Below, one piece after another: positions 4,646 through 34,363 of a DNA stretch of 37,572 nt. The position numbers and the translations under genes are program-made. Source of the stretch: Escherichia phage SKA5. The notes under the pieces are model-generated. The model was given only the letters and a program-made list of their open reading frames with translations, searched no databases and was not told the DNA's origin. Each line of letters starts with the position of its first letter. Position 1 is the first letter of the stretch. The DNA lies in sequence record OR670062.1. One strand, written 5' to 3'.

Positions 4646-5018
4646 CTGAACCTCCCCGGCGCGTTATGAGCGCCACCAGCGAGCCGATATCCTGATTATT
4701 CAGGAACGTCAGGATTTTAACGGCTAAAGCAGAGACGATTACGGCACCAATAGCATCCAGAGGTTTATCACTGTATCCGGTCAAGTTCGCCAGCTTGGAG
4801 CCAACCAACCCAGAGCAAAGAATCCCGGCAATATATGACACGATAAAATATGCCAGTCGGCGCGATGCACTCAGATCTGCTGCTGTTGCTATGTAGAATA
4901 CAGCCCCTGCAAATGCGCCAAATACAACGCCGTAATCAGTTCCGGTCAGCAGTCCATAAACACTGGCACCCGTCAGGGCACCACCAGCCAGCCCAGTACC
5001 GGAAATCGGATCGGACAT
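4632..5018 (-). CDS. holin-like membrane protein
   Basis: 128 aa with Gly/Ala-rich hydrophobic helices and a charged C-terminus. Strong SD (AGAGGGGG). First gene of the lysis cassette. Confidence 0.55.
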   Translation of the reverse strand: MSDPISGTGLAGGALTGASVYGLLTGTDYGVVFGAFAGAVFYIATAADLSASRRLAYFIVSYIAGILCSGLVGSKLANLTGYSDKPLDAIGAVIVSALAVKILTFLNNQDIGSLVALITRRGGSGGAK

Positions 5019-5097
5019 TTAGCCCCCTCTTAATTGCTGTTGGTCCTCTCAGATATGAGGGGAAGGGATCTTAATGACAGTCTGTTTATTATTTCAG

Positions 5098-5355
5098 TCA
5101 AATACTACCCTGTTGATGATTTCTCAGAAGCGAACTTGACTCCCAGGGGAAACTCAACTTTCCGTTAAAACCACCAGCAGACATTCGTTCAATTTCCACA
5201 GAAATATCACTGAGCCGTTCTTCAAGCTCTGCTTTTTCTTTTACCAGACGGTTATAGCGGCTTAGATGAAGCTTTTGCTGCTCCAGCCAGTCTTCAAGCT
5301 GTTCAACAGTCATACCAGGGTTAAAAAAATATGGCTGCTGCTTTTCGCCCTGCAT
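5098..5355 (-). CDS. hypothetical protein (first ORF downstream of the late terminator)
   Basis: 85 aa from the ATG at 5355 with a GGAGG SD. The longer ORF-track start (5424) would lie upstream of the terminator hairpin, so the shorter start is preferred. Confidence 0.45.
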   Translation of the reverse strand: MQGEKQQPYFFNPGMTVEQLEDWLEQQKLHLSRYNRLVKEKAELEERLSDISVEIERMSAGGFNGKLSFPWESSSLLRNHQQGSI

Positions 5356-5370
5356 TATTGACCTCCAGAA

Positions 5371-5398
5371 AAGCAAAAACCCCGCCGAAGCGAGGTTT
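5371..5398 (-). terminator. tR'-like intrinsic terminator (expected target of Q antitermination)
   Basis: Hairpin CCTCGC-TTCG-GCGGGG followed by UUUUU on minus-strand RNA, roughly 65 nt downstream of the predicted late promoter. Confidence 0.5.
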
Positions 5399-5445
5399 GT
5401 TATGATTTCGTTAACGGCAGACATACAAAGCCCATCGTTAGGAGA

Positions 5446-5474
5446 ATCCTAACCATATTTTTTGAAAAATGCAA
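5446..5474 (-). promoter_or_regulatory. putative late promoter (pR'-like)
   Basis: TTGCAT-N17-TAGGAT on the minus strand, immediately downstream of the Q gene. Confidence 0.35.
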
Positions 5475-5505
5475 GCATCATGCCGCCATCTTCGGCGAAA
5501 ATCAT

Positions 5506-6258
5506 TTATCTTGTCACTTTTCTCAATTGTGTCTCTGCATATGCTTCTTCCTGCCAGCACTTTGTAACCAGTTTATCAATGACATCTGCATATCCTTTGT
5601 ACCACTGATAATCCGTCAGGTCCGGTACCAGCTTCTGGACATGATGCCGCGCCAGTGTGGTTGGTAAACGGCTAAACCGGTTGCCATTGCAACGCCCACA
5701 AATCTTATAAACAGGCACACCATGAAGCCGGGTTCTTTTTTCATCCAGGACAATACCTTTACCCTTACACCCTCTGCACGCTGTGCTGACTTCTCCCTTA
5801 CCATGGCAATGCTGACATAGTTCCTTCACCCACTCTTCCTTGATAACAGATTCCCCGCTTCTGGAGTGTTTCACCACTTCGCGCAATACATTATGAAATC
5901 CAGTACCAGCACAATGCTCACAGCGAGCCTTACTTGCCGCAGACCTGGAATAATCAGCAAAGGCAAAATTCACAAGGTAAGGGATGATCTGTAACCGGGT
6001 TTCTTCACTCAATTTGTTCAATGTCGGGTTATCCAGTGCCATCGCGTAATTGAGCAGACCTTCAATCGCAAATTGAGGATCCTGAACACCAACTTTTGCC
6101 AGGAATAAGGCAAACCCAAGCGGTGCTTTCGACTGCACCATCCCCTGCGCAGCCATCACATCCGTAATCGTTAAACCACCTGAGCCTGTCGCCGGTGCGT
6201 CATCGCTCAATTTTGGAGATTTTGGGGAGTAATATTTTGGTAAGGCTTCAAGGTTCAT
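5506..6258 (-). CDS. late-gene antitermination protein Q
   Basis: 250 aa from MNLEALPKYY. Four CxxCxGxG zinc-finger repeats. Sits directly upstream of the late promoter and lysis genes. From memory it resembles the Q protein of E. coli cryptic lambdoid prophages (QuuD-type). Confidence 0.75.
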   Translation of the reverse strand: MNLEALPKYYSPKSPKLSDDAPATGSGGLTITDVMAAQGMVQSKAPLGFALFLAKVGVQDPQFAIEGLLNYAMALDNPTLNKLSEETRLQIIPYLVNFAFADYSRSAASKARCEHCAGTGFHNVLREVVKHSRSGESVIKEEWVKELCQHCHGKGEVSTACRGCKGKGIVLDEKRTRLHGVPVYKICGRCNGNRFSRLPTTLARHHVQKLVPDLTDYQWYKGYADVIDKLVTKCWQEEAYAETQLRKVTR

Positions 6259-18011: not shown

Positions 18012-18246
18012 AGGTTCCCAATAGGATCCCACAAAGTGTATAACTAGTTGTTTTTCAAAAACGGTACATCCTATCGAGCATAGGAGCAATGCTAAACCGA
18101 GAATTCCAGTAAACACCAGTTTTTTCAGGCATCACGCTGGTTTGATTAATTTTTTGTGTTTCATGATTATCGTGCATTTTTGAACATTTCAGGCTATTTT
18201 TCTCGCATTAGGTTCCCGCACAGGTTCCCACGTTTTATGGGAACCC
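18012..18246. repeat. clustered (A/G)GGTTCCC(A/G) repeats; candidate integrase arm-type sites / attP region
   Basis: Copies at 18012-18020, 18023-18031 (one mismatch), 18210-18218 and 18222-18230, with an inverted copy at 18238-18246, in the AT-rich non-coding stretch just upstream of the integrase gene. Confidence 0.35.
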
Positions 18247-18265
18247 GAAATAACGAGGTCGTGTA

Positions 18266-19363
18266 ATGGCGTACTATAACATAGAGAAACGACTAAAATC
18301 CGATGGCACACCACGCTATCGCTGTAATGTGATTATCAAAGAAAAAGGTGTTATCACTTACAGGGAAAGCAAAACATTCCCTAAACATGCTCATGCCAAA
18401 ACATGGGGCACACAGAAAGTGATGGAATTAGATCTATATGGCATTCCATCATCAAATGCAGTTGACGGACTTACAGTCCGTGACTTACTACACAAATATT
18501 TAAATGACCCAAATGCCGGAGGTAAAGCAGGCCGTACTAAAAGATATGTGCTGGAACTGCTTATGGATAGTGACATCTCCGCGATCAAACTATCTGAACT
18601 GACAGAAAATGACGTAATTGAACATTGCAGGCTAAGAAACAACGCTGGCGCAGGTCCAGCAACAGTCAGCCACGATGTTAGTTATCTTGGCAGTGTTCTG
18701 GATGCGGCCAAACCTGTATACGGAATTAATTACACATCAAACCCGGCGAAAAGTGCTCGTCCATATCTACTTAAACTTGGTTTGATTGGTAAATCAAACC
18801 GTCGTAATCGTAGACCAGCATCTGATGAACTGGACATGCTCATTGAAGGCCTTCAACAACGATCTACTCATAAATGCTCAAAAATTCCGTTCGTTGATAT
18901 CCTCAAATTTTCTGTGTGGTCCTGTATGCGAATCGGAGAAGTATGCCGGTTACGATGGGAAGATCTCGACCAGGAACAAAAATCTATACTCGTAAGAGAC
19001 AGGAAAGATCCACGCAAAAAGGAAGGCAACCACATGAAAGTAGCCTTGCTTGGGGAAGCCTGGGATATCGTCCAACGACAGCCCAAAAAATCGGAATTCA
19101 TTTTTCCATATAACAGCACTTCTATTACTGCGGGATTTCAGAGGGTAAGAAGCAAATTAGGTATTAAGGATCTGCGATACCATGATTTGCGTAGAGAAGG
19201 GGCAAGTCGCTTATTTGAGGCTGGTTTTAGTATTGAGGAAGTAGCCCAGGTTACAGGGCATCGTTCATTAAACGTGCTATGGCAGGTATATACCGAACTG
19301 TATCCGAAATCTTTACATAATCGTTTTGAAGAGCTCCAAAGGAGCAGAAATAAGACCCCTTGA
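18266..19363 (+). CDS. tyrosine-type site-specific integrase
   Basis: 365 aa with C-terminal catalytic-domain motifs (HDLRREGASRLF, GHRSLNVLWQVY). Confidence 0.9.
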   Translation: MAYYNIEKRLKSDGTPRYRCNVIIKEKGVITYRESKTFPKHAHAKTWGTQKVMELDLYGIPSSNAVDGLTVRDLLHKYLNDPNAGGKAGRTKRYVLELLMDSDISAIKLSELTENDVIEHCRLRNNAGAGPATVSHDVSYLGSVLDAAKPVYGINYTSNPAKSARPYLLKLGLIGKSNRRNRRPASDELDMLIEGLQQRSTHKCSKIPFVDILKFSVWSCMRIGEVCRLRWEDLDQEQKSILVRDRKDPRKKEGNHMKVALLGEAWDIVQRQPKKSEFIFPYNSTSITAGFQRVRSKLGIKDLRYHDLRREGASRLFEAGFSIEEVAQVTGHRSLNVLWQVYTELYPKSLHNRFEELQRSRNKTP

Positions 19364-19409
19364 CACTGTTTATCCATACAGTTAAAAATAATACTGTATA
19401 CAAACACAG
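19360..19409 (+). promoter_or_regulatory. SOS-regulated promoter region with two LexA boxes
   Basis: TTGACA at 19360-19365, then two CTGT-N8-ACAG boxes (CTGTTTATCCATACAG at 19366-19381; CTGTATACAAACACAG at 19394-19409), directly upstream of the dinI-like ATG. Confidence 0.6.
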
Positions 19410-19424
19410 TATAGAGGGACTTTT

Positions 19425-19673
19425 ATGCGTATTGAAATCTGCATAGCCAAAGAAAAAATGACTAAAATGCCAACCGGTGCTGTGGATGCGTTAAAGGAAG
19501 AATTAACCCGACGCATCAGTAAACGTTATGACGATGTAGAGGTGATCGTAAAAGCCACCAGCAACGATGGCCTTTCTGTTACACGCACCGCAGATAAGGA
19601 TTCTGCAAAAACTTTTGTTCAGGAGACTCTGAAAGATACCTGGGAATCTGCTGACGAGTGGTTTGTTCACTAA
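19425..19673 (+). CDS. DinI-family protein (SOS-inducible RecA modulator homolog)
   Basis: 82 aa; [10 protein letters not shown]-terminus and [16 protein letters not shown]-terminus closely resemble DinI. Confidence 0.85.
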
Positions 19674-19816
19674 TTAACACGTAAAATCGGTAACGGCTGG
19701 AAATCATTCAATAATCGCACTATCGAAAGTTCGCCAGCCAGCCGCAGCACGTTCTTGCATACGACGTGGCTGCGGCTTCCAACATTAGACAAATAACTCT
19801 TTAAATTGCTTTTAAA

Positions 19817-20380
19817 TTATTTCGTTTGAATGCCAGTAACAGGAAATCGTTTATATAGGGTTGATAGCCCAACGTTATAGATACGTGCAACATAACGCCG
19901 TGATTTCCCTGCCGCTATGAGCGCTCCCATCTGTTGCCACTGCTCGTCGCTAAACTTCGGTCTACGCCCACCAATCCGGCCTTTGGATCTGGCAATAGCC
20001 AAACCAGCTAAAGTTCGCTCGCTATTCAAATCAGATTCATACTGCGCAGCAGAAAGAATATTACGGAAATTATAGCGACCACTTGCTGTTTTCAGGTCTA
20101 CGCCATCTGTAATACTCCGAAAATTAACACCTTTTTCGTGCAGATTTTGAAACATCAATAGCGCATGCAGCACATTTCTCCCTATCCGATCTAACTTCCA
20201 GACAATCAACTCATCTCCACTTTTCATCACCGTAATTAATTCCTTTAACACAGGGCGATTAGCTGTTCTGCCACTGGCATATTCTTCATAAATTCGCTCA
20301 CAGCCAGCTGACTCAAGTGCAAGACGTTGCAACTCTGTATCCTGATGATTTGTTGATACACGAACATACCCGTAAATCAT
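19817..20380 (-). CDS. serine DNA invertase (Pin/Gin/Hin family)
   Basis: 187 aa; N-terminal resolvase catalytic domain (GYVRVSTNHQ with the Ser nucleophile) and a C-terminal HTH. Adjacent to the invertible tail-fibre segment. Confidence 0.9.
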   Translation of the reverse strand: MIYGYVRVSTNHQDTELQRLALESAGCERIYEEYASGRTANRPVLKELITVMKSGDELIVWKLDRIGRNVLHALLMFQNLHEKGVNFRSITDGVDLKTASGRYNFRNILSAAQYESDLNSERTLAGLAIARSKGRIGGRRPKFSDEQWQQMGALIAAGKSRRYVARIYNVGLSTLYKRFPVTGIQTK

Positions 20381-20439
20381 GAGTACTTCTCCTGTTGTAA
20401 AAACAGGAGAAGAGGCGAAATATCACCTGATTCAGAAAA

Positions 20440-20465
20440 ATATTTGAAAGGTTGGTTTGGGAGAA
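20440..20465. repeat. inversion crossover site (left), hix/gix-like
   Basis: ATATTTGAAAGGTTGGTTTGGGAGAA; inverted copy of the core TTCTCCCAAACCAA found at 22271-22296. Confidence 0.6.
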
Positions 20466-20918
20466 GGTTCGGCATTACCCGTTGGTGTGCCTGTCCCGTG
20501 GCCTTCCGCCACTCCGCCAACAGGCTGGCTAAAATGCAATGGTGCGGCTTTTTCTGCTGAAGAATACCCGGAACTGGCAAAGGTTTATCCGACAAATAAA
20601 TTGCCTGATTTACGCGGTGAATTTATTCGTGGCTGGGATGACGGACGTGGAGTGGATGCCGGGCGACAATTATTATCTTCACAGGGGGATGCAATAAGAA
20701 ATATTGAGGGATTCGCAGATGGCGGGATCGGTATGTCTTTTGATGCAATCAGAGGGGCTTTTTACGATGCAGGAACACGATCAGCGAGAATGCCGAATAA
20801 CACAACTACTATAGACAAAACCGATGACCTTGGATTCGACGCCTCTCGTGTCGTGCCAACAGCTAATGAAAACCGTCCACGTAACATCGCCTTTAATTAT
20901 ATTGTGAGGGCTGCATAA
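20457..20918 (+). CDS. alternative tail-fibre C-terminal segment (silent orientation)
   Basis: Open frame starts exactly at the crossover site (LGEGSALPVG) with a stop codon just upstream. It would fuse to the constant fibre N-terminus after inversion. Confidence 0.6.
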   Translation: MGEGSALPVGVPVPWPSATPPTGWLKCNGAAFSAEEYPELAKVYPTNKLPDLRGEFIRGWDDGRGVDAGRQLLSSQGDAIRNIEGFADGGIGMSFDAIRGAFYDAGTRSARMPNNTTTIDKTDDLGFDASRVVPTANENRPRNIAFNYIVRAA

Positions 20919-21511
20919 TGAAACCTGTTTTTGATGAAAATGGGCTGGCTACAGTGCCGGGTGATATGCGTTGTTTTTATTATGATGCAGTAACGTCTGA
21001 ATATACGGGCTGGTCTGATGAATATATTAATACTGGCGTAAGTATGCCCGCCTGTTCCACTGGTATTGACCCGGGCGAATACATTCCGGGGAAAGTGGCA
21101 GTATTTACGGGTAAGGGATGGAGCCATGAAGAAGACCACCGCAATGAGACTGTTTACTCAATCGAAAATGGCGCAGCTGTTACAGTGGATTATATCGGTG
21201 CCATCAAAGACGGTTATGTCACGCTTTCACCGTTAACGCCATACGATAAATGGGATGGTGAGAAATGGGTGACAGATACTGAGGCACAGCATAGTGCCGC
21301 ACTAGACGCGGCAGAAGCACAGCGCCAGTCGCTGATTGATGCTGCAATGGCTTCCATCAGTCTGATTCAACTGAAATTACAGGCCGGGCGGAAGCTGACG
21401 CAGGCAGAAACAACCCGACTTAACGCCGTGCTGGATTATATTGACGCGGTGACGGTAACAGATACCAGCACTGCGCCGGATGTCATCTGGCCTGAACTGC
21501 CGGAGGCGTAG
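20918..21511 (+). CDS. tail fibre assembly protein (partner of the alternative fibre)
   Basis: 197 aa; conserved Tfa C-terminus (LDYIDAVTVTDTSTAPDVIWPELP). Confidence 0.75.
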   Translation: MKPVFDENGLATVPGDMRCFYYDAVTSEYTGWSDEYINTGVSMPACSTGIDPGEYIPGKVAVFTGKGWSHEEDHRNETVYSIENGAAVTVDYIGAIKDGYVTLSPLTPYDKWDGEKWVTDTEAQHSAALDAAEAQRQSLIDAAMASISLIQLKLQAGRKLTQAETTRLNAVLDYIDAVTVTDTSTAPDVIWPELPEA

Positions 21512-21923
21512 GCCATTCAATATCTGGCGCACCGGAAGTATCGACCAGTTCCAGTGTGTCCAGATAATCCAGCCACAAATTATATTGCGCCAGTTCCTCA
21601 CCTTTCAGGCGACCAATCGCCGCTTTACCAGGCCATTGCTTACTGTTTATGTATTCGTTGACCTGATTAATCAATTGCTGCTTTTCCAGTTCGGCTGCGG
21701 CAATTTGTTCCTCATGAGTTGGCGGTGGAATATCAATCCATGCAGGCATTCCGTCGATGACACCTCTGTATTTTCCTTCTGGTGCTTCCTTCATAAATTC
21801 GGCGGCAACAGTGTCGTCAATTTCGATTCCATCATCGGGCCATTCGCCGGATTCCTGATAAGCGATTTTAAGCTCCACAGGGAAAAACGCATTTTTATCG
21901 GCACTGAAAATATATTTCTGCAT
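21483..21923 (-). CDS. tail fibre assembly protein
   Basis: 146 aa with the same Tfa C-terminal motif (LDYLDTLELVDTSGAPDIEWPTPP). Convergent with the other Tfa gene and overlapping it by 29 nt. Confidence 0.75.
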   Translation of the reverse strand: MQKYIFSADKNAFFPVELKIAYQESGEWPDDGIEIDDTVAAEFMKEAPEGKYRGVIDGMPAWIDIPPPTHEEQIAAAELEKQQLINQVNEYINSKQWPGKAAIGRLKGEELAQYNLWLDYLDTLELVDTSGAPDIEWPTPPAVQAR

Positions 21924-21925
21924 TT

Positions 21926-22573
21926 CTACCGTCCTATCGAAATATAACTGAATCTGTATTGCTGTGAGATATCACTGGTTGCCACACGCCACGCTGAATT
22001 ACTGATATGTTCAAAATTTACAGACAAAACCTGCGGGGCAGGATGCGACGGATCTGACTGAACGGCATCAGACATAACACTGACTGAAACCATCGGCTGA
22101 TTAGGGAATGGTATAGGGAAGTGTCCACTGATAAAGCGGGTCGTGTTTCCTGAAAAAGTGCCAAACTGAACAATATATCCACCTGGTAGCCTGAACCATC
22201 CCGAACCAGAAGCGAATGCTCCCATATCCGGTATCTGATTATCTCCTGTGCCCACATCCCTTTTCGCCGCTTCTCCCAAACCAAGGTTTTCGAGAGCCGT
22301 TTGCACAGTGCCATCCGATTTGATATCGCCAAACGGATTCTTGCGGCTTAACAGCAGCGCACGAAGTGCGGTAAGCAGCTGGTCGTGCCGCGCCTTCTCG
22401 AGACTGGCACCGGATGCCTCTACAACGCTGCAAAGCTCCTCCTGCAACATGTCAAAGTAGTCATCATCCAGATCGGTGGCAGGCGTGCCAGTCTGGGGGT
22501 TACCACGGGTAAAACCGTTCTTACCCGCGCCGAACTTATCCTTCTGCGCGGTTTTCGTGTCTATACGATGCAT
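21926..22573 (-). CDS. tail fibre protein (constant N-terminus plus currently expressed variable C-terminus)
   Basis: 215 aa, last gene of the tail operon. The inversion crossover site lies inside the gene at 22271-22296. Confidence 0.7.
22271..22296. repeat. inversion crossover site (right), hix/gix-like
   Basis: TTCTCCCAAACCAAGGTTTTCGAGAG inside the tail-fibre gene; resembles the hixL pattern. Confidence 0.6.
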
Positions 22574-22576
22574 GGA

Positions 22577-23161
22577 TTACTCCGGATATTTAAAAATTAC
22601 GTAGGTATGCGACGGGCAGAGTTTGTTAAGCACACATTCGACGACGGTGTCACCCCAGATACGCAGTGCGGAATCACAGGGATCGCCACATGTCATCCAG
22701 GTGGAGTTGGTGGTGGCTGGCATGTTGACCTGCCAGTAATACCGCCATTCCGGCGCATTCACCGCGTCAGTACAGGCCGATGAGCAGGTGAAAGTGCTTT
22801 TGTCGTATCGCGTGATGGTGGCATCTGGTCTGCCCAGGGCAGCAAGCTGTGCAAGGTAAAAATCCTCATTGATGCCGCCCGCCAGATTAACCTTCGCATC
22901 CAGCCGTTGCTGACGCTGGCGAAGGGTCTGTGTCCCTGCGGGAATACATTCATCCGGCAGACCGCACAGACGCTCCCAGCGGTTTATCAGTTCAGTGGTG
23001 GTGCGCGGATCCAGCTCCCGCATCAGGGCATCCGCACGCTGATGAACGCGGGTTAATGACGGTGCAGCACCGGCAATCGCCGGATCGCTGGCTGACCACG
23101 CCGGACCGGGCGGCAGCAGTGCCGACAACAGACGGATGTAATCATCGTTTGTCACGTCCAT
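22577..23161 (-). CDS. baseplate wedge/tail protein (Mu gp48 / e14 YmfQ-like)
   Basis: 194 aa; position and sequence type consistent with Mu-like baseplate protein gp48. Confidence 0.65.
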
Positions 23162-24210
23162 GAAATCGTCCCCAGAACCGCCAGTTCATTTTTTGCAATG
23201 GAGATATTGTCCGCCGGTGCAAGCAACTGATGGCTGTATTCCCCGTTCGCACCGGAAATCGCTTCACTGATACGTGACACCTTCAGTTCTCCCTGCGGAT
23301 AACCATCACGCAGCAGGAACGAACGCAACTCGGCGGTGATGGCAGCCCGTATTTCCGGTGTGTCCGGCGTCACGCGGATATGAAAATCCACCGTATGTGC
23401 CACCGGCCTGAACACATACAAATCAGAGCCTGCCACCGGGGCCAGTGGCTCGATATGTTGTCTTGCCGCCGTTTCCGTTGATTCTTCCGGAATGGGATTA
23501 ATCAGGTCACTGCTGGCAATCATCACACCGACAGTTCCCGTTCCCATCCAGTGACGGTATGTCCATGCGCGGGTAATGCCGGGCACTTCTTTAGCCCAGA
23601 CGACATAGTCCCCGTCAGCCCCGCCCTGCGGCGTCCAGTAATACCGCTCAATGACGCGGGCGCGCCACGTTTCCAGATCTTCAGTATCGAATCCGCCAGT
23701 CAGGGTATCTGCAACACCGGAAGACGGCAGACCATTCACCGGCGTGACCAGGATTAATGCCGTACCGTCGTCAGCGTTACCGACCGCGCCTGCACTTGAG
23801 CAAGTGATCGGCACGCGCAGGACACCACCGGAGCTGGTTGCATCAGCAGTTGCCGTGTACTGAACCAGGTCATCGCGCTGAATCACGCTCCCGGCGGTCA
23901 CCTTCAGGCCATCGCTGACACCTTCCCAGCGCATATACCCGCTGGCAGCCGTGGCCCCCTTGCGCGGACACCGTTTCATCGCAGCATGTCGCGCCAGCCA
24001 GGACTCATCGCACAGGTCAGGCAGCATATTCATTGCCAGATAATCGATGTACCCGTAGACCGTATGCAGCGCCGCCGCATACACCTTTGCCCGCACGTCT
24101 TCATCCATGCGCCGGAGCGTGTTGCTGACGTCCAGCCTGGCGAATAAATCGTTACGGAGCATACTGATATTTTCTGCCAGCGTCGGGCGCTGAAATTCAC
24201 TGTCCGCCAT
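23152..24210 (-). CDS. baseplate J-like protein (Mu gp47-like)
   Basis: 352 aa; gene order and size match baseplate J. Confidence 0.75.
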
Positions 24211-24625
24211 GCGTTATCGCACTCCACAGATCATCAAAAGAAATCATTACCGGTCCGTCACGACGCCAGAGAGTGATACTGTTACCCAGTTCATTAATCC
24301 CGGTACGGCGGATATCCAGATCAATACGGGACACCACGCCGTCATCAATCATCCATTGCAGGCATTCGCGGATATACCCCCTTACCGTCTGCACCAGCTG
24401 ATTGGTCAGTTTGCTGCGCTGAAGCAGCCACAGTCGGGAGCCGTAACGGTCATTCTGTACCGCAGGCCAGGTATCCCCCCACCATCCCATCGGGACGTCG
24501 GCGTTGTCATCAGGCTCCGCCCGCCGCCAGGTAAACAGGGAAATCACCACGGCGCGGGTCAGCGGATCCAGCGGTGCGCTGGCGCAGGTGCGTTTACCGT
24601 TCACCGTCAGCCACAGTTCCATCAT
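24197..24625 (-). CDS. baseplate protein (Mu gp46-like)
   Basis: 142 aa between the spike and baseplate J genes. Confidence 0.65.
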   Translation of the reverse strand: MMELWLTVNGKRTCASAPLDPLTRAVVISLFTWRRAEPDDNADVPMGWWGDTWPAVQNDRYGSRLWLLQRSKLTNQLVQTVRGYIRECLQWMIDDGVVSRIDLDIRRTGINELGNSITLWRRDGPVMISFDDLWSAITHGGQ

Positions 24626-25170
24626 GCCTCCATCGCTTTATCAGGTTTGTCGGTGTTACTGCCCTGACCGTTCTCTCTGTGACGATGCCCGTTATAGGCA
24701 AGCCGCATCGCTGACATGGTGGTGCCGCTGGAGTCGCACAGGTCTTTCACCTGTCCTGTCACTTCCAGGTCCATTTCAAAACGTGCCTTAGGCGCATTGC
24801 GAAACGTGATCGTTTTACCTGCACCGTCCACCACGATCCCCTCCCGGGTCAGCGTCACGGACTGCCCCTGATCGTCATAGACAGCCACCTCACCCGTCTG
24901 CAGCCCTTTCAGGCGGTAGCGCCGGTCCGACACCGTAACAACCACCGCATGAGAACGGTCGCCATCCGGAAACAACACCACCGCTTCCGCACCGCTGTTT
25001 GCCCTTGCGGTAAAACCGTAGGGTTCAAGATGTTCAATCCCGGCTTTGGGTTCACCGGCAATCAGGGACACATCCACGGTCTGACATTTCGTGGCGGCAC
25101 TGATGCTTTTCACCACGGCCCGCCCAATCAGGCCGAGGAGTTGTCGCTGCATGGCTTCAATCGTCCTCAT
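24622..25170 (-). CDS. baseplate spike/assembly protein V-like (Mu gp45-like)
   Basis: 182 aa; position in the operon is the main evidence. Confidence 0.65.
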   Translation of the reverse strand: MRTIEAMQRQLLGLIGRAVVKSISAATKCQTVDVSLIAGEPKAGIEHLEPYGFTARANSGAEAVVLFPDGDRSHAVVVTVSDRRYRLKGLQTGEVAVYDDQGQSVTLTREGIVVDGAGKTITFRNAPKARFEMDLEVTGQVKDLCDSSGTTMSAMRLAYNGHRHRENGQGSNTDKPDKAMEA

Positions 25171-26249
25171 CAGAACGGGTCCTCCTGTACTCTGGCTTTT
25201 TTCTTTTTCCGCGCGCCGGGGGCTTCGGGTTCAGGCAGATAAGCATCAGGCGGGCCGACACGGATTTCCGTCAGGGTGCCGTTCTGGTCCTGAGTAAACG
25301 TGACTTCCGAAACAAGCAGTTCGGTATTGTCGAAACCACAGACCGGATCAAAGACAATCACCCGCTGGTTGGGCTGCCACAGCGTACCGTTACCCTGTCG
25401 CCAGCCCTGCACCACATAGGTGGTTTCATCCGTCCGCGCCGCCCGTTGTCGGGCTTCAAAGTCAGCACGGGCAATACAACCTGCCCCCGTAGCCTGCCCT
25501 GTCTGCCTGATATACATCGGACGGTAACGGGCAATAAATGCGTCCTCTGTGCGGGCCCGCAGCGCGGTGGTGGTGGCCTCACCGAAATCATCGTCGTTTC
25601 CGGCACGCTGCCCCGCCACCTGGTAAACAGAAAATCGCTCCCGGATACTCTTCTCCGTATCGCAGGAAAGGATGTTTTCCCCGAGTACCAGCGCGGTATG
25701 TGCCCGCGTTGAGCCAATACCGCCAATCACCAGCCTGCCGTGCGGGTCGTCGTAAGCCAGTGCCTGCTGCTGACCGAGTATTTTGTTAATCACCTCGATC
25801 ACCGTTTCACCGTGATCAGGCTGGACATCAGGAATAACACCCGACGGCGCACCGCTGTTCACCACCTCAATGCCGAAGGGCGCAGCAAGCGCCTGCGCAA
25901 TCTGTACCAGCGATCGTCCGTTAAACTGTGTCGGTTCGGCTGCACAATCAATCAGGTCAGCGGTCAGACTGCGTCCGGCAATACCGGTGCTGACCGAACG
26001 GGCATCGTAACGAACGGGCGTCGCCTCCACCCAGCCGGTGATCACCAGCTCATCACCAATCAGCACCTCCACTTTTGAACCGTTTTTAATGCGCGGCTGA
26101 AGCGTGGTGATACCCTCATCACCCGGCCACTGGCGGGTGATCTCCACACTGAAATCCCGCGCCAGCCGTTCAATACCGGCACCGATGCGCACCGATGTCC
26201 AGCCATTCCACTCCCGGCCATTTACCCGTAGCGTGACATTGTCGTTCAT
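25170..26249 (-). CDS. baseplate hub protein (Mu gpP / gp44-like)
   Basis: 359 aa downstream of the DNA circularisation protein. Confidence 0.7.
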   Translation of the reverse strand: MNDNVTLRVNGREWNGWTSVRIGAGIERLARDFSVEITRQWPGDEGITTLQPRIKNGSKVEVLIGDELVITGWVEATPVRYDARSVSTGIAGRSLTADLIDCAAEPTQFNGRSLVQIAQALAAPFGIEVVNSGAPSGVIPDVQPDHGETVIEVINKILGQQQALAYDDPHGRLVIGGIGSTRAHTALVLGENILSCDTEKSIRERFSVYQVAGQRAGNDDDFGEATTTALRARTEDAFIARYRPMYIRQTGQATGAGCIARADFEARQRAARTDETTYVVQGWRQGNGTLWQPNQRVIVFDPVCGFDNTELLVSEVTFTQDQNGTLTEIRVGPPDAYLPEPEAPGARKKKKARVQEDPF

Positions 26250-27574
26250 TGCACTGGCACCTTCAGAGGGATCACCGGCACAAAGCCGGGATGCGTAATG
26301 GCATTACGCCGAATAATGTCCGCGTCACGCGCCGCGTTATCAAACCAGGTCGCCGCCAGCACCAGCGCGGGTAAAACCTCATCCGGTGTGCGCTGAATGA
26401 TCCGTGCAGACTGTTCAAGGCGCGTGTTGATATCCGCATTCAGATCTGCTTTCACCCGGCGCAGCGCCAGAAACAGCGCATCACTGGTTGTACGGGACAA
26501 CTCCTTATCAATTGCCGTATTCAGTGTGTCGCGAATGTCAGTCAGTTCTTCCCACGTCGGCAGGTCAACTGTGTTTTTCACCGCCGGTGCATTGTTCAGT
26601 GCCGGATGCGTGACGGAAGGCCAGCCAGTGCTCTGCGCAGGTGTTGTTGCCTGCCCCACTGCGGCATTCTGCATCACCGCGGAAGTTGTTGGCGCAGGCA
26701 ATCGGGTGACGGCATACGCCGCTTCGCTGATTGCGGTCGTACGAAGGGTGCTGGCAACCACGTTACGCTGCTGCGTCGCCGTGGCGGTGGTTTTACTGTC
26801 CGTTTTCCAGACGCCGCGCGGTTGCAGATCGCTGCCAAGGCTGACACCAGAAAGCGTTTTGATCATGGTGACCAGGTCGCTGGCGTTACCGTAAAGGCGT
26901 TTCCCGGTACGCCACATTTTCTGCACCTGCTCAACGAAATTTTTGCCTGACGATGGTGGCGGCAGAAGTACCGAGATATCCCCCTGCAACAGCCTGGCCG
27001 CATCCGATACGGCAGAATCCACCACTTTCATCGCATCAGAAACATACCCCAGCATTATGCTGGCATTACCGATAACGTCGTTCTGCACGAAATCCGCCAC
27101 ACCATCGATACTGAAACCGCTGAAGCTGTCACTGATGCAGTCATCCAGTGCAGAACAGGATGACATCAGCGTCTGCGCCGTCGCCGCACCTGATGTGGGG
27201 TAAGAGAGTTCTCCTGCTTCGACAAACTTCAGGTCAAAGCGGACAATACGCCCTTCACTTTTCGATGTGCTGACCCGAACTTCCCCGTCAACACAGACTT
27301 TCAGCTCACCATATGTCGGGTGGACAAGCGTGCCTGGACCGGGTTTATTCAGCGCGTCAATCAGGCGATCGCGCTGGTCAAAGCAGTCATCTCCTACCAC
27401 ATAAGCTGTGATGGACGGGCGGAAAGTGACTTTTCCCAGATCTTCGGTATAGGGCTTGTCGCGGTTCGGATATTCGTGTGTTTCCACACGGCGACCGGTT
27501 CCCGCACTTTCTTCTTCAACCTTAAACGGTACGCCGCGAAATGACGCATCCTGAAGCCTGTCTTTCCACGTCAT
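26246..27574 (-). CDS. DNA circularisation protein (Mu gpN / gp43-like)
   Basis: 442 aa; N-terminus (MTWKDRLQDASFRGVPFKVE) typical of the family. Confidence 0.75.
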   Translation of the reverse strand: MTWKDRLQDASFRGVPFKVEEESAGTGRRVETHEYPNRDKPYTEDLGKVTFRPSITAYVVGDDCFDQRDRLIDALNKPGPGTLVHPTYGELKVCVDGEVRVSTSKSEGRIVRFDLKFVEAGELSYPTSGAATAQTLMSSCSALDDCISDSFSGFSIDGVADFVQNDVIGNASIMLGYVSDAMKVVDSAVSDAARLLQGDISVLLPPPSSGKNFVEQVQKMWRTGKRLYGNASDLVTMIKTLSGVSLGSDLQPRGVWKTDSKTTATATQQRNVVASTLRTTAISEAAYAVTRLPAPTTSAVMQNAAVGQATTPAQSTGWPSVTHPALNNAPAVKNTVDLPTWEELTDIRDTLNTAIDKELSRTTSDALFLALRRVKADLNADINTRLEQSARIIQRTPDEVLPALVLAATWFDNAARDADIIRRNAITHPGFVPVIPLKVPVQ

Positions 27575-27664
27575 ATAAACTCCGGATATAAAAAACCCGC
27601 CAAATCTGCTTTGTCAGTTATTTACATCGCAGAAGATGTGGCGGGAACCTAATATTTTTAATTA

Positions 27665-28159
27665 CTATCTGAGTTGAACATCAATGGAATAAATATCACC
27701 ACTCTTTATAAATTTAGAATCTGTCCTTTCATCAAAAGATTCAAATGACTGTACCTTTAAAAACTTTTTCATTTTATTTTCAAAAATACTTTCATTAACA
27801 CCAGTTAAATACTTGAATGCTCTACCAGCAAGGACCTCATTACTTAAATCCATTGTGTTTTTATTGTCTTTGAAAAACCAAACAATAACCTTTTGTGGGC
27901 ATGATGGATTATAAACAGATATATAAAACTGCGGTTCATATTTTTCATCAGCGTCATCACTAAGCATTTCTTCAGAAGATAATTCTCTTCTGAATTCATA
28001 TTGCCGCTTAGTTATTCCTTCATCCTTTATTATCTCTTGCTTAACTGGTGCAATACCTATAGAAGAGATTAATTCTGACTCATTAAAGCTGAACTTACAC
28101 TCTTCCGCAGCCAAGTTAAAAGATAAAAGTGCAGATATAAAAAAAACAAAGATACGCAT
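27665..28159 (-). CDS. secreted hypothetical protein (AT-rich moron inside the tail operon)
   Basis: 164 aa from MRIFVFF with a GAAGGG SD; the ORF-track start is 28177. N-terminal signal peptide (FISALLSFNLAA / EECK) with no lipobox. Strongly AT-rich. Confidence 0.6.
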   Translation of the reverse strand: MRIFVFFISALLSFNLAAEECKFSFNESELISSIGIAPVKQEIIKDEGITKRQYEFRRELSSEEMLSDDADEKYEPQFYISVYNPSCPQKVIVWFFKDNKNTMDLSNEVLAGRAFKYLTGVNESIFENKMKKFLKVQSFESFDERTDSKFIKSGDIYSIDVQLR

Positions 28160-28258
28160 AATCATCCCTTCAATCATTTGTAAGGAATGATTATATTAAC
28201 TACTTAAATCTGAAAACCCAAATTATGCCAGACAAAAACACATTAATCATTTTGTACA

Positions 28259-30091
28259 CTACCTGAACCGCGTATAGCCAACATCATGGCTGACATCAAA
28301 ACCGCTGGATCGCGTTTCCATAACCCGCATACCCGGAGGCGAATTCACAAAAGATACCTTGATCTCACCATCAACTTTTGGCACAGAAGCTTTGTTAATC
28401 ATGAAGGGATTCGAGCCTGTGGCATCGGAGGCGTTGTTTGCCTGAGCCGGATCCACCGCCGGATAAGGAGTGTATCCCCGTGGCGGTATTCCCGTCCCAT
28501 AAGCATCATAAGCACCCGCGCCCCACTGCGCCGAGTTAATGGCATCGACCGTGTCACCGGAACTGTCGGTAAACCATTCAATAATCGGCTTCAGCTTACC
28601 CCACATATCCTGAAACCACTTAACAACCGGTCCCCAGTTATTGATCACCATCCCCAGCGGCGACCAGGCAAAAACCTTCTTCAGAAGTTCCCAACCTGCC
28701 TCAAAATAAGGACCAATGGTTTCCCAGAGCTTCTTGAAATAAGGTCCGACAACATCCCAGTTAGTGATAATTAATCCCGCAGCCAGAGCAATCGCCGTCG
28801 CAATCATGCCAATCGGCGTCATCGACATGATCCTGCTGACAATACTGATGGCACTGCCCACGCCCATCAATCCCAGTTTCAGAATCGCAAGACCGGCAGC
28901 AAGCCCGACGACGCCGCGAATAACCCGGGGATTTTCATCCGCAAACTTCGTGAATTTCTCCCCCAACTCCCCCAGCCATTGTGTGATATTTTTAGCGTCA
29001 CCAGAAAATGCGCCGCCAATAGCCGCAAGGCCGTTAGTTGCGGTCCCTGTCATTGCCTCCCACAGGTTGGACAGCGTACCAAGCTGTGCCTGAACACGTT
29101 TATTCAGGCTGGCCTGTTTATTCATCTTCTGCTGGATCTGATCGTAGCCATCCTTTCCTTTATCGATTAGTGCATTGACCACCTGAAGGGTTTCGGCATC
29201 ATCACCAAATATTGCCTTAAGTACACCTGTTCGCTTAACGTCGGTCAGTTTTCGCAGCTTTGCCAGTTGCCTGAACATGTTATCAAGACCGCCAAAACTT
29301 CCTTTGCCGTCAGTAAAATCGAGCTGTACCCCGAGTTTCTGGCGGGCCATAACTTTATTAACGTCCCTGATTTTCTTAACGCTTAATCCGGACTGGATAA
29401 CTTTTCGCAGGGCATTACCTGCCGACTCCCCGTTCATCCCCATCTGATCCATCATGACGCTGATGGGGGCAAGGCTCTGTGCAGCCTGAAGACCATCCTT
29501 GTTCACCATCTTCAGAACAGAACTGGTTTTAGTGAAGAAGGACAACATGTTGGTATCGTCAACGCCCAGATAAAACGCCTTCTGGATAGTGTCGAACAGC
29601 CCCATCATGTCTTCTGACGCCGTTCCGGTAGCATCCTGCATCTTTGCAGCAAACTCAGCAGCCGCTTCCGGTGTTTTTTTCAGTTGTACCGCAAGATAAG
29701 CTGTCGCTTTACCCACACCACCCAGAATGTTTTCTGCCGGGATCCCCTGACGCACCAGCATCTGCATCATGTTCTGGAAATCAGCCGTTGTACCGGGTAG
29801 CTGGTTACCCAGGCCAATAGCCAGTTTATTGATGTCCTGAAAGCTCTTTCCAACCTCGCCGTTCGCATCCATCATGGCGACTTTCAGCCCGGTGGCGGCG
29901 TTTTCCTGATCGGCATAAGATTTCAGGGAAAGCGTCAGACCCGCTGCCAGTCCGCCACCAAGCGCCAGCCCACCCTGTGACGCTTCTTCCGCCTGGCGTT
30001 TAAATCCCCGGATTTTCTTTTGCATTTTCGACAGCGCGGGAGAAAGCCTGTCGACACCGGTGATCAACGCCTTAAGCTCAAATTCAGCCAT
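28259..30091 (-). CDS. tail tape measure protein
   Basis: 610 aa, Ala/Gly-rich with hydrophobic stretches, downstream of the frameshifted chaperone genes. Confidence 0.85.
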   Translation of the reverse strand: MAEFELKALITGVDRLSPALSKMQKKIRGFKRQAEEASQGGLALGGGLAAGLTLSLKSYADQENAATGLKVAMMDANGEVGKSFQDINKLAIGLGNQLPGTTADFQNMMQMLVRQGIPAENILGGVGKATAYLAVQLKKTPEAAAEFAAKMQDATGTASEDMMGLFDTIQKAFYLGVDDTNMLSFFTKTSSVLKMVNKDGLQAAQSLAPISVMMDQMGMNGESAGNALRKVIQSGLSVKKIRDVNKVMARQKLGVQLDFTDGKGSFGGLDNMFRQLAKLRKLTDVKRTGVLKAIFGDDAETLQVVNALIDKGKDGYDQIQQKMNKQASLNKRVQAQLGTLSNLWEAMTGTATNGLAAIGGAFSGDAKNITQWLGELGEKFTKFADENPRVIRGVVGLAAGLAILKLGLMGVGSAISIVSRIMSMTPIGMIATAIALAAGLIITNWDVVGPYFKKLWETIGPYFEAGWELLKKVFAWSPLGMVINNWGPVVKWFQDMWGKLKPIIEWFTDSSGDTVDAINSAQWGAGAYDAYGTGIPPRGYTPYPAVDPAQANNASDATGSNPFMINKASVPKVDGEIKVSFVNSPPGMRVMETRSSGFDVSHDVGYTRFR

Positions 30092-30502
30092 GTGTGCGTT
30101 TCTCCTGCTCTATCCTGTTTGCCTGACTGACCAGTAAGGGAATTTCACTGATCGGCATATTCAGCAATTCGAAAGGATTAATGCGCCAGTAGCTGGCGCA
30201 GTCAAAGAAGCGATCAGTGAGGTATTCAGCCGTCAGGCCTGGAGGAAAAAACCAGCCACAAGCCACGCCGCTGCATTCAGGTCTGCCGGAGACATCTGGT
30301 CGACAGAGCTTTGCGGCACTTTCGCCAGCCGCACAATGTATTTCGATACCACATGCGCCAGAAGTCTGACGGACTCATCCTGATTCATCTGGTAGGGATA
30401 TCCCAGCTCGCGGACATCTTTCCCGGTGGGTTCATCAAACTCCAGTACGGAGAGTGTCTCGCCATGAGCAGTAATCGGTTTCTTTAACTCAAGCTCTTTC
30501 AT
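30084..30502 (-). CDS. tail assembly chaperone, predicted -1 frameshift fusion product
   Basis: Slippery T-TTT-TTC heptamer in the overlap of ORF 30233..30502 with the -1-frame ORF 30084..30266, in the conserved position between tail tube and tape measure. Confidence 0.5.
30233..30502 (-). CDS. tail assembly chaperone (short product)
   Basis: 89 aa, acidic, immediately downstream of the tail tube gene. Confidence 0.7.
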   Translation of the reverse strand: MKELELKKPITAHGETLSVLEFDEPTGKDVRELGYPYQMNQDESVRLLAHVVSKYIVRLAKVPQSSVDQMSPADLNAAAWLVAGFFLQA

Positions 30503-30858
30503 TACTGGTAATCCCCTTCTTCACCGTGGAACTCAAGATCAACCGTGCCTTCTTCGGCATTATGGTTCGCTTCGCCGTGCAGCCAGGCAGACGACAGTAC
30601 ATAGACCTGACCGTTAGCCAGCTCGGCAGTGATGGTCATCTCATCAGACGAGGTGATTTTGCTCACCGGAAAATTCTTCGGCACCTTGAAGGTCCCTTTG
30701 ACATAAGGTGCACGGTGAGTTTCCTTGCGGTCCACTGAACCGTCCAGGCCGATGATGTCATCATTAACCGTCCTGTTCATGGGCACTTCAATGCCGCCGG
30801 TCAGCGATAGCTGCTGACCGTCAATTTTGAAATAACAGGTTCCCCCGATACGGGCCAT
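30502..30858 (-). CDS. tail tube protein
   Basis: 118 aa immediately downstream of the sheath gene. Confidence 0.75.
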   Translation of the reverse strand: MARIGGTCYFKIDGQQLSLTGGIEVPMNRTVNDDIIGLDGSVDRKETHRAPYVKGTFKVPKNFPVSKITSSDEMTITAELANGQVYVLSSAWLHGEANHNAEEGTVDLEFHGEEGDYQ

Positions 30859-32354
30859 TATGCAGACTCCTCTGAATACTGAAGACGGAACTGGTTAACC
30901 ACGGCAAAGACACGCAACTGGTTAACATAGTCAGGCGGGAACAGCGTGTTCAGGCGGTTCGGATCGCTGGCATCACGCTCCACAACCAGGTACTGCTTAA
31001 ACAGTTCGTAGTTTTCCACGATCCCCGCACGCTCAAGCTGACGGTAGGTTGCCAGCAGTTCCCCTTTGATCACCGCCGGGGTGACAATCGCCTGACCGGG
31101 ACCAAAGCGGGTACCGTCACTGGCAAGCTTGTGACGCCCGTACTTACTGGTAATGACGGATTTCAGTTTGCGCAGTACATACGCGCTGGTATGCAGCGTC
31201 TCACTGTCGAGGTAGCTGTTATCCGCAACCCCGTAAGCGTTTTTCCTGTACGTGGTGACATCACGCTGAATGCGTAGTACCCCGCTTTCGACATACGCCG
31301 TTGCCACGCCATGAGACAGCAGGGTCTGTTGTTCGGTCATCGTGAACCGTTTCCCCTTCGGCGCAGGCAGCATACCCACCAGCTCACCGGTCTGCGTGGG
31401 ACGTGCCGGATCGTTGCGAATAAACACCGCTGCGCGGGCGGTACGGCTTGCCGCCAGCTCGTCGGCAGGCGTCTGGGTCTCTTTTTCGTACCCCGCCAGG
31501 GTAATGTGCTGCTGGTTAAACTGATCACCTGCGGTCACCAGTTCTGACAGCGTGCCGATCTTTGCCGTATACACATGACCATACAGCTGACGTGCATAGC
31601 TCCAGCGACCGCTGGTATCGTTCATCTCGGTCACCAGCGTGTTAACGGAGGCCGTGTCGTTGAACGGCAGACCGATATAATCAAACGGCTCATCCGCCAT
31701 TGCAGCCACCGCGCCGGTGAGAACAGGAGCGCCCGTTCCGGCGGTCCCCGCCGCCACGGCAATCTGTACGCCCGCTGGCAGCACTTCGCCCCCACCAAAG
31801 CCGTAGTAATTGAGGCTGACAGGAATTTCATTCCCGCAAAGCCCCTTATGACGCGCGGTCAGCGTGACCACGCCTGCCGAAGATGAGGCCGTAAACGGCA
31901 GAGCCGGAACGGCATTGATGGCATCCTTGATACTGCTGGCAATCGTCGCGACGTTATCGCCGTTGGTCACCGGTGCCTGCACGCGGGTACGTCCCACATA
32001 AACATTTACCGTGCCGGTTTCGGTTGCCGCCCCGGTCACCGTCAGCGTAACCGTTGCCGCCGCGCCCGTGGATTCAGGAACGGCAATCACATACAGCTCA
32101 CCAAACGGGTCGGTCTGGCGATAAGCCTCGACCATACGCGCCAGCTGACTTCCCGCACCACAAATCTGACGTGCATAGTCTGCCGACGGCATCAGCACCA
32201 GACTGTTGGCAACAATCTCTGCACCGTTATTGGCGTGACCAATCAGCAGCGATGCCCCGCTATCCTGGGCGGTGTTCGCCGCCGAGTTATCCATTTCCGC
32301 ATAAAACAACGGAACCAGCGTATTCGACGGAATGGTGTTAAAGCTTATCGTCAT
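30858..32354 (-). CDS. tail sheath protein (contractile tail)
   Basis: 498 aa; size and position match Mu-like sheath proteins. Confidence 0.85.
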   Translation of the reverse strand: MTISFNTIPSNTLVPLFYAEMDNSAANTAQDSGASLLIGHANNGAEIVANSLVLMPSADYARQICGAGSQLARMVEAYRQTDPFGELYVIAVPESTGAAATVTLTVTGAATETGTVNVYVGRTRVQAPVTNGDNVATIASSIKDAINAVPALPFTASSSAGVVTLTARHKGLCGNEIPVSLNYYGFGGGEVLPAGVQIAVAAGTAGTGAPVLTGAVAAMADEPFDYIGLPFNDTASVNTLVTEMNDTSGRWSYARQLYGHVYTAKIGTLSELVTAGDQFNQQHITLAGYEKETQTPADELAASRTARAAVFIRNDPARPTQTGELVGMLPAPKGKRFTMTEQQTLLSHGVATAYVESGVLRIQRDVTTYRKNAYGVADNSYLDSETLHTSAYVLRKLKSVITSKYGRHKLASDGTRFGPGQAIVTPAVIKGELLATYRQLERAGIVENYELFKQYLVVERDASDPNRLNTLFPPDYVNQLRVFAVVNQFRLQYSEESA

Positions 32355-32508
32355 CGGTGTTCACCTTTTTATTCACGCGCCGGATATCACCCGCTGCTTC
32401 ACGGCGCAGCCAGTAGTTGTTCTCATCAACATTTCGCCCCTCGGCGGGCAAAAGGTCGCCGCGGGCAGGGTCAGGCACTGACCGCCCTTTAACAGGTTTC
32501 ACAAACAT
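32338..32508 (-). CDS. DUF2635-like small protein (Mu gp38-like)
   Basis: 56-aa ORF below the track threshold: MFVKPVKGRSVPDPARGDLLPAEGRNVDENNYWLRR. GAGGA SD; overlaps the sheath start. Confidence 0.55.
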   Translation of the reverse strand: MFVKPVKGRSVPDPARGDLLPAEGRNVDENNYWLRREAAGDIRRVNKKVNTDDDKL

Positions 32509-32516
32509 GAGGATCC

Positions 32517-33580: not shown

Positions 33581-33965
33581 TGCTGCCTCCGTGACTCTGC
33601 GTAAATTCGCCCAGTTCCGTACACTCCAGCAGCAGAAAGCGCCGCGCCCCGTTCAGATCGCGCTGACGTTTCACCCGGTACACACTGTCATCACAGACCA
33701 CCTCATAATCAGCAGTGATCCCGCGGCGGTAGCGAATGGTGATGTAATGGGTGATGGCATCTCCGGTCTGCGCGGTTTCCTGCCAGGTGGTGGCACTGGT
33801 CTGGATAACCTTCGCCCATGCCCGGAACGCAACCGGGTATTGAGGCTCCACGCCAAAGTTATCCGCGGGCATATCCACCCGCTGGCGGATCAGGACGCGT
33901 TTATTCAGTTCGCCGGGGTCCGGCAGTATGTAGGTTGCGCTGGTCTGCGCCTGACGAATTTTCAT
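33555..33965 (-). CDS. head-tail adaptor (head closure) protein
   Basis: 136 aa; ATGA overlap with the connector gene. Confidence 0.6.
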   Translation of the reverse strand: MKIRQAQTSATYILPDPGELNKRVLIRQRVDMPADNFGVEPQYPVAFRAWAKVIQTSATTWQETAQTGDAITHYITIRYRRGITADYEVVCDDSVYRVKRQRDLNGARRFLLLECTELGEFTQSHGGSNGDSLFSR

Positions 33966-34285: not shown

Positions 34286-34363
34286 AAAACCTCCTGTGCC
34301 CGCCAGAACGCGGGCACAAAAAAACCGCATTACGCGGCGTGCTGTATTACGTAAAAAGACTAA

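Follow-up and report, generated by a model that had tools for sequence, protein, structure and literature searches.

The 37,572-nucleotide (nt) sequence of Escherichia phage SKA5 (OR670062.1), here called the window, contains between positions 6258 and 5098 a gene for a lambda-type Q antiterminator, a predicted late promoter (pR′), a short leader, an intrinsic terminator (tR′) and an open reading frame (ORF) of 85 codons. Very probably, this is the cassette through which a temperate, lambdoid phage of the SfV/ST64B-like kind controls its late genes, together with the first gene under that control. The reading is carried by the family membership of Q, by a promoter and a pause element that are homologous to their lambda counterparts, by a strong terminator, by an ORF that is under selection, by the occurrence of the same module ahead of stx2 in other phages and by an RNA 3′-end mapped at the corresponding site in Qin, a cryptic prophage of K-12. 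The genes in this part of the window are all on the minus strand, as is every feature of the cassette described below, and coordinates are given in the direction of transcription.

Q and the predicted late promoter

A Q cassette is defined as a Q gene, pR′, a sigma-dependent pause element, a terminator and the late genes (PMC9388147). The Q gene of the window (6258 to 5506) encodes 250 amino acids (aa) and is assigned to the lambda-Q family by matches in Pfam (Antiterm, PF03589, E = 2e-54), in PHROG (phrog_127, 'Q-like') and to the structure of lambda Q (PDB 7UBM, E = 8e-38), the latter in two aligned blocks, residues 1–120 and 160–250. Between the blocks is an insert of 39 residues (about 121–159) that adds two further CxxC motifs, making four as compared with the single zinc ribbon of lambda Q, and it is because of these two motifs that the protein also matches the DnaJ_CXXCXGXG profile. 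According to the 7UBM alignment, the insert belongs to the arm with which lambda Q touches the Q-binding element, so that an altered DNA footprint and a second zinc site are plausible for this Q, to judge from its sequence.

The Q stop codon (5508–5506) is 32 nt ahead of the predicted –35 element, and the sequence that follows it has the order ...GCATGATGC TTGCAT TTTTCAAAAAATATGGT TAGGAT TCTCCT AACGATGGG CTTTGTATGTCTGCCGTTAACGAAATCATAAC AAACCTCGC TTCG GCGGGGTTT TTGCTTTTCT GGAGG TCAATA ATG. The predicted –35 hexamer, TTGCAT (5474–5469), aligns with TTGACT in lambda, and its TTG is invariant in the alignment of relatives. The predicted –10 hexamer, TAGGAT (5451–5446), is TAAGAT in SfV and the Stx2c phage, TAAAAT in K-12 Qin and TAGTAT in the IMG/VR locus L061. 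These hexamers, separated by 17 nt, conform to the consensus at three and four of six positions, respectively, and by themselves are not above chance. The promoter is credible because it is homologous to lambda pR′ position for position, including AACGATGGG, and because the same frame has been kept behind diverged Q genes. The lambda late promoter reads TTGACT TATTGAATAAAATTGGG TAAATT TGACTC AACGATGGG; by direct reading (MAFFT alignments were also made) the two promoters align ungapped from –35 to +9 with 29 of 44 bases identical, the final nine being the same in both. This AACGATGGG element (AACGAT followed by GGG, 5439–5431) starts six bases past the –10, the same distance as in lambda pR′. 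In lambda, AACGAT at +1 to +6 is a –10-like element that is re-bound by sigma70, resulting in a pause at +16, and the GGG that follows is a discriminator-like pause enhancer (PMC4005639). The homology thus places the predicted +1 at ~5439, in agreement with the earlier note on this DNA, which put the transcript start near 5440, and a promoter-proximal pause, the putative site of Q loading, would by analogy with lambda be at +16/+17 (5424–5423).

The 17-nt spacer (5468–5452) matches that of lambda at 11 of 17 positions, is nearly invariant among phages with this type of Q and is the predicted Q-binding site. The lambda Q-binding element is located between the –35 and –10 elements. The element is described as embedded within the late promoter or adjoining it (PMC9388147).

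The frame TTG...TGG.TA...T-N6-AACGATGGG is invariant behind Q genes with 99%, 67%, 65% and 35% identity. SfV and Stx2c phages, whose Q is 99% identical, have this frame, as do K-12 Qin, behind ydfT (quuQ), and two metagenomic phages with a Q that is 65–67% identical, and AACGATGGG itself is invariant in seven cassettes, those of the window, SfV, the Stx2c phage, Qin, L061, L063 and lambda. The full promoter-to-ORF region is present in 101 of 5,426 complete E. coli genomes.

Leader and terminator

The best terminator-like site in the region, tR′ (5398–5369), is a hairpin with the stem AAACCTCGC-TTCG-GCGGGGTTT (5398–5377), which has nine pairs, five of them G-C, and a stability of –13.1 kcal/mol as calculated by folding, with a U-tract that consists of T5 (5379–5375), GC and a T4 that ends at 5369. 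Counted from the predicted +1 (5439) up to the U-tract, the leader has a length of about 65 nt. In the fold of the 71-nt leader, a small 5′-hairpin (5439–5413) is followed by an unpaired A/U-rich linker and the terminator, and the overall energy is –19.5 kcal/mol (z = –2.0). The earlier note had identified TTGCAT-N17-TAGGAT downstream of Q, a hairpin plus U5 some 65 nt beyond it and, from these, a pR′-qut-tR′ layout. The hexamers, hairpin and U5 are present as described, on the minus strand, and the layout is borne out, at the level of sequence, by the lambda-family Q, the ungapped pR′ homology and the terminator. Its account of the promoter was correct as regards the hexamers and overlooked the strongest feature, the AACGAT plus GGG pause element.

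By Megablast, the window is 98% identical to SfV, mEp460 and many Stx2c phages throughout Q, the promoter and the initial ~27 nt of the leader. Identity to these SfV-type phages ends at 5413, the 3′-end of the 5′-hairpin, which is a mosaic junction inside the leader, ~15 nt ahead of the terminator, and so tR′ appears, from these alignments, to move together with the cargo behind it and not with Q and pR′. A hairpin with a stability of –10 to –17 kcal/mol is present at the equivalent place in each relative, and the stems differ in sequence: ACCCGC...GCGGGT in SfV, the Stx2c phage and Qin, and CCCTGCC...GGCGGGG, GCTCGC...GCGGGC or GGCTGCC...GGCGGCC in other loci. It is therefore the structure, not the sequence, that has been kept. 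The SfV record annotates its hairpin as a rho-independent terminator.

For Qin, there are also transcript data. In the Term-seq table that Adams et al. (2021) provide for MG1655, there is an 'orphan' 3′-end at 1642356(–), within the U-tract, and the flanking sequence, ...AAAACCCGCTGATGAGCGGGTTTTGTGC, is that of the Qin terminator. The two table entries for this end, both from uninduced cultures, have read counts of ~104,000 and ~55,000. If the Qin +1 is at 1642422, where homology places it, this RNA would have a length of 67 nt. The evidence is of a 3′-end only, as the published K-12 transcription-start data that were searched revealed no corresponding 5′-end, and no name for an RNA of ~67 nt at this position was found in the literature searched. 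The 3′-end fits a pR′ that is constitutively active and constitutively terminated, as in lambda and Stx phages (PMC7547250).

Two further explanations can be evaluated against these data. If the hexamers were a product of chance, the hairpin would terminate an early, Q-containing transcript and the late genes would be transcribed from elsewhere, as might be argued from hexamers that match the consensus at 7 of 12 positions and are passed over by a consensus scan, and from the presence of a second promoter-like site, TCAACA-17-AATAAT (5116–5088), just ahead of the holin gene. However, lambda pR′ is matched without a gap and with an identical pause element, the exact frame is kept behind diverged Q genes, an abundant short 'orphan' RNA has its 3′-end at the Qin homologue of the terminator and, as the scan yielded one site where 3.0 were expected, the 5116 site is not significant. 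Chance is, consequently, a highly improbable explanation. The 5116–5088 sequence, on the minus strand with an upstream TG and within the final codons of the ORF, was the sole call of the generic sigma-70 scan; it was considered as a holin promoter, was rejected on the same count and is probably fortuitous.

Alternatively, the ~65-nt pR′-tR′ RNA could itself be the functional product, a constitutive StxS-like small RNA (sRNA) in lysogens, with the ORF being of secondary importance. Terminated pR′ transcripts can be regulatory sRNAs, as documented for StxS (PMC7547250), the homologous Qin 3′-end is abundant in uninduced K-12, and the leader has an orderly fold of hairpin, linker and terminator. 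Set against this, there is no Rfam match, the z-score of the fold is just –2.0, the single-stranded linker that would have to provide a seed is the least conserved part when window-type and SfV-type leaders are compared, and Q control inevitably generates a short terminated RNA, which needs no function. A role as an sRNA therefore seems doubtful. In the Rfam searches, the whole window had no match at the gathering threshold, including to IsrK, StxS-like and STnc100 RNAs, and a permissive threshold applied to positions 5000–5560 returned only sub-threshold, terminator-driven matches and no family. We also considered, and rejected, an IsrK-like sequestration of the ORF start by the leader in the read-through RNA, as the pairing of leader nt 9–17 with the AUG region is not significant (z = –1.27). 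In a fold of the read-through RNA (5439–5300), part of the Shine-Dalgarno sequence may also be sequestered, an arrangement that recalls IsrK-orf45.

The 85-aa ORF is a conserved gene

The ORF (5355–5098), recognized by ORF calling, by its homologues and by a profile match, begins at an ATG that is preceded, six bases upstream, by a GGAGG Shine-Dalgarno sequence (5366–5362) that has been kept alongside the ORF in diverged loci. We identified 59 homologues, in Escherichia, Salmonella, Citrobacter, Enterobacter, Kluyvera and Pectobacterium, and homologues are also encoded by Klebsiella and Salmonella phages. The exact 85-aa sequence is encoded on at least 1,000 contigs and is labelled hypothetical in all cases. 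In pairwise comparisons over 66 ungapped codons, the ratio of nonsynonymous to synonymous substitution (dN/dS) is 0.09–0.26, with dS values of 0.8–2.9 except for one near-identical pair. Given purifying selection of this strength (dN/dS ~0.1–0.25), the ORF is a real protein-coding gene. Conservation across the homologues starts at the annotated methionine. A 108-aa version that would start from an ATG at 5424 was rejected; this start is inside the leader upstream of the terminator, has no Shine-Dalgarno sequence, and the extension is not conserved.

The protein belongs to an existing family to which no function has been assigned. It matches phrog_3501, listed in PHROG as of unknown function, over residues 1–84 of 85 (E = 1.3e-54), and is 75% identical, over 84 of its 85 residues, to Sb50 of ST64B. 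The GGAGG sequence and the ORF had been correctly noted before, and the conservation and coding signal sought among related phages are now documented. The accompanying statement that the protein has no recognizable family holds for Pfam, NCBIfam and PADLOC, and fails for PHROG 3501 and its Sb50 homologue. The proposed search for homology thus succeeded, whereas the search for a related fold did not, as a Foldseek comparison of the AlphaFold2 model with the PDB returned no match, a single helix being uninformative. When 1.84 billion representative proteins were searched with a profile, 32 close relatives at 50% clustering were returned, indicating a narrow family. None of these 32 has a longer match; a few longer proteins appear merely to start further upstream. 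Distant members share three blocks, PYFFNPG(M/L), a central ELEDWL...EKAAL..RL helix and LSFPWEPSPLL, so that the two ends of the protein each have a conserved peptide motif (PYFFNPGM and LSFPWxPSPLL).

The AlphaFold2 model, made with an alignment, has one long helix (residues 17–60) with a predicted local distance difference test (pLDDT) score of ~90, and above 85 in that stretch, and poorly ordered ends (mean 77). By direct count the helix is charged and the protein net acidic, and the 85-aa protein contains no signal peptide, membrane segment or toxin domain. The protein is probably soluble and acidic, with one long helix that, based on the model, would oligomerize as a coiled coil. It is neither a toxin nor a membrane protein, and the label 'Phage membrane protein' attached to one UniRef entry was dismissed, as the model has no hydrophobic segment. 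A sliding-clamp-binding motif in QQPYFF was also dropped, being a matter of resemblance only.

Codons 9–12 include a run of seven T residues (5329–5323) that is a frameshift site in some copies. Among four IMG/VR copies, the run is T6 in L051, L052 and L053, which also have premature stops, and T8 in L054. These are either decaying copies or the result of homopolymer sequencing errors. As frameshifted and stopped copies, they suggest that the gene is dispensable in some prophages. Most likely, the 85-aa protein is a non-essential accessory factor that binds a partner in late infection. Our assignment extends only to a 'late-expressed soluble accessory protein', and we infer both the late expression and the binding of a partner.

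The ORF is at the head of the late operon

Relatives of the locus were obtained from a scan of IMG/VR (80 loci); a scan of genome contigs confirmed no locus. In 80 of 80 IMG/VR loci, the ORF homologue is downstream of an antiterminator region, and in 10 representative loci its ATG is 16–41 nt past the U-tract of the terminator, with GCTTTTCTGGAGGTC recurring between the two, with small changes, in most of the 10. In another group of loci the ORF homologue follows a tRNA-Thr, and in L061 and L063 an extra gene and a second terminator are positioned between tR′ and the ORF homologue. The ORF is, nevertheless, almost always just past the terminator at the head of the late operon, irrespective of the type of Q or holin. 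The neighbouring Q proteins include PF03589 members (99%, 65–67% and 33–39% identical), a DUF1133/PF06530 protein and the 207-aa Sb49 type that has no Pfam match. The holins encoded downstream are of four Pfam families, and the intervening DNA often contains tRNAs, an insertion sequence (IS) element or an STnc100 RNA. Variants of ST64B exchange SB49 and SB51 and retain SB50.

In the window, the next late gene encodes a holin (Phage_holin_8, 5018–4632), 79 nt past the ORF stop codon. The site after the terminator was predicted in the earlier note to be the cargo position that is occupied by Shiga toxin genes in other lambdoid prophages, and phage Stx2c_2409 bears this out. Its Q/pR′ region is 98% identical to that of the window and is followed, before the holin gene, by a terminator, two small ORFs, an N6/N4 DNA methylase gene, two tRNAs, stx2A (RIP domain) and stx2B (SLT_beta); beyond stx2B are STnc100, an ORF with a sialate-esterase domain and a P21-type holin gene. 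Elsewhere, this slot holds orf47 and a methylase gene in SfV and cold-shock (csp) genes in Qin, and the authors of the SfIV study call it a moron site (PMC3851460). Sharing the slot with Shiga toxin says nothing about toxicity. Scans with Pfam, NCBIfam and PADLOC revealed no toxin domain in the 85-aa ORF and, in the same scan, RIP and SLT_beta were detected in the Stx2c slot; nothing suggests that the 85-aa protein is a toxin.

The STnc100 sRNA is recognized by Rfam between the ORF homologue and the holin gene in the distant phages L066 (4740–4935), L057 (5702–5935), L072, L074 and L081, and just after stx2B in the Stx2c phage (L085, 4079–4290); it is absent from the window. In the Enterobacteriaceae prophages L071 (4801–5847), L075 and L079, an IS element that encodes a transposase with rve and HTH domains is located between the ORF homologue and the lysis genes.

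Given this location, the ORF could be lysogenic-conversion, moron-like cargo that benefits the host and is expressed at a low level in lysogens by leakage through tR′, in the manner of other genes that occupy this slot. Its GC content is 43.8% as compared with 50.7% for the window, its distribution is patchy, being absent from SfV, mEp460 and Stx2c phages that have the same Q, and the slot is a recognized one for cargo and morons, as exemplified by stx2 and by SfIV (PMC3851460). The lower GC is, however, the only moron-like trait of the ORF. There is no promoter of its own, with ~17 nt between the U-tract and the ATG, and no terminator-like site after it, between 5098 and 5018; its association, at the head of the operon, with many Q/holin modules in several genera suits a phage function better; and, as noted, signal peptide, membrane segment and toxin domain are all lacking. 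A cargo role is, on balance, unlikely. Since it has no promoter of its own, the ORF product would be made as the first late protein.

Proposed mechanism

The preferred reading, Q control of the late genes, predicts the following sequence of events. Host sigma70 RNA polymerase would initiate constitutively at pR′, with the +1 near 5439, and would pause near +16/+17 when sigma region 2 re-binds the –10-like AACGAT(GGG) at +1 to +9. Without Q, the transcript would end at tR′ (5398–5369), generating a ~65-nt RNA that would be the counterpart of the lambda 6S RNA. After induction, Q would bind its presumed site in the promoter spacer and load onto the paused polymerase, making it terminator-resistant, and transcription would then read through tR′ into the 85-aa ORF, two holin-family genes, the genes for a GH19 endolysin and spanins, and the terminase and head genes. 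The start site, the pause and the Q-dependent read-through of tR′ are postulated by analogy with lambda.

Several observations weigh against this interpretation. The generic sigma-70 scan of the region made no call at the hexamers, which are weak with 7 of 12 matches, and the composite TTG-N20-TANNNT-N6-AACGAT, allowing up to one mismatch, was found once with 0.27 expected and so is only mildly improbable. The 39-residue insert is in the DNA-contacting arm of Q, and the geometry of binding may therefore differ from that in lambda. The Term-seq evidence belongs to Qin, whose terminator is of the SfV type and unlike that of the window. As regards the ORF, there are SfV, mEp460 and Stx2c phages that have the same Q and do not have the ORF, some copies of it are pseudogenes, the model consists of a single helix and is of low confidence at its ends and, with no match in Pfam, NCBIfam, PADLOC or the PDB, nothing points to a function.

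A more far-reaching proposal is that the 85-aa protein represents a new class of 'first late protein', a small acidic coiled coil made at the onset of Q antitermination, ahead of the terminase, portal and capsid proteins, with conserved terminal motifs that would bind and neutralize a host factor, for example an abortive-infection sensor that responds to late proteins, or a regulator of lysis timing. The fixed position of the ORF after the terminator, retained with several kinds of Q and four holin families, would then reflect selection for being expressed first. We offer this as a speculation that is more likely to be wrong than right by a wide measure. The reading of the ~65-nt leader as an StxS-like sRNA runs parallel to it, and the two are compatible.

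Comparison with known systems

As in the lambda cassette, a PF03589-family Q is followed by a –35, a 17-nt spacer, a –10, six bases and AACGATGGG, and a terminator precedes the first late gene. The window differs from lambda in that Q is ~35% identical and has the 39-residue insert with two extra CxxC motifs, in that the spacer is mismatched at 6 of 17 positions, and in having a protein gene directly past the terminator. The leader of the window is also much the shorter, at ~65 nt versus ~194 nt in lambda. With SfV and the Stx2c phage, the window shares a Q that is 98–99% identical and, with these as well as with mEp460 and Qin, a nearly identical promoter, pause element and ~27 nt of leader, whereas past ~5413 all of these have a different hairpin sequence and different cargo. 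In ST64B, the 75% identical Sb50 is similarly encoded between the Q-like sb49 and the holin gene sb51, but the 207-aa Q-like neighbour has no Pfam match, the holin is of another type and, unlike the ORF in the window, Sb50 has in its annotation a long stretch of extra N-terminal residues that are not conserved.

StxS of Stx phages and IsrK of Gifsy-1 also have a constitutive promoter and an early terminator that result in a short RNA in lysogens and, at the IsrK locus, a small ORF likewise directly follows the terminator. In contrast, neither has sequence or Rfam similarity to the leader in the window, and StxS comes from a 144-aa class of Q and is processed from a 258-nt precursor.

Other features of the window

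Between the spanin and the HNH/terminase genes is a 106-aa ORF (3114–2794, minus strand) with a weak match to GrlR, the negative regulator of the locus of enterocyte effacement (LEE) island; the NCBIfam match (E = 2e-10) does not reach the curated cut-off. Its homologue in H10407 is labelled 'GrlR family regulatory protein' in RefSeq, and this GrlR-like ORF may be a moron in the late operon. The window looks like a complete, circularly permuted phage genome of 37.6 kb (SfV, 37.1 kb). Its last 682 bases (36891–37572) match the portal gene that, in a prophage of enterotoxigenic E. coli H10407, directly follows the terminase gene (window 1734–1), and positions 18180–36891 have no match in the 39-kb H10407 prophage stretch.

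Significance

The control cassette adds one more example to a kind that is thoroughly known, and it differs from lambda mainly in the compact leader and the putative second zinc module of Q. Its identification mainly improves annotation, in that it locates where the late transcript is likely to start, and it explains why stx2c is controlled by the same Q/pR′ allele in other phages. The compact variant, with a ~65-nt leader and a Q that has a putative second zinc module, is widespread and, as the short Qin RNA is abundant in uninduced K-12, this class of Q is open to a test for an StxS-like sRNA. The Sb50/PHROG 3501 protein, common, maintained by purifying selection and unstudied, provides a modest opening.

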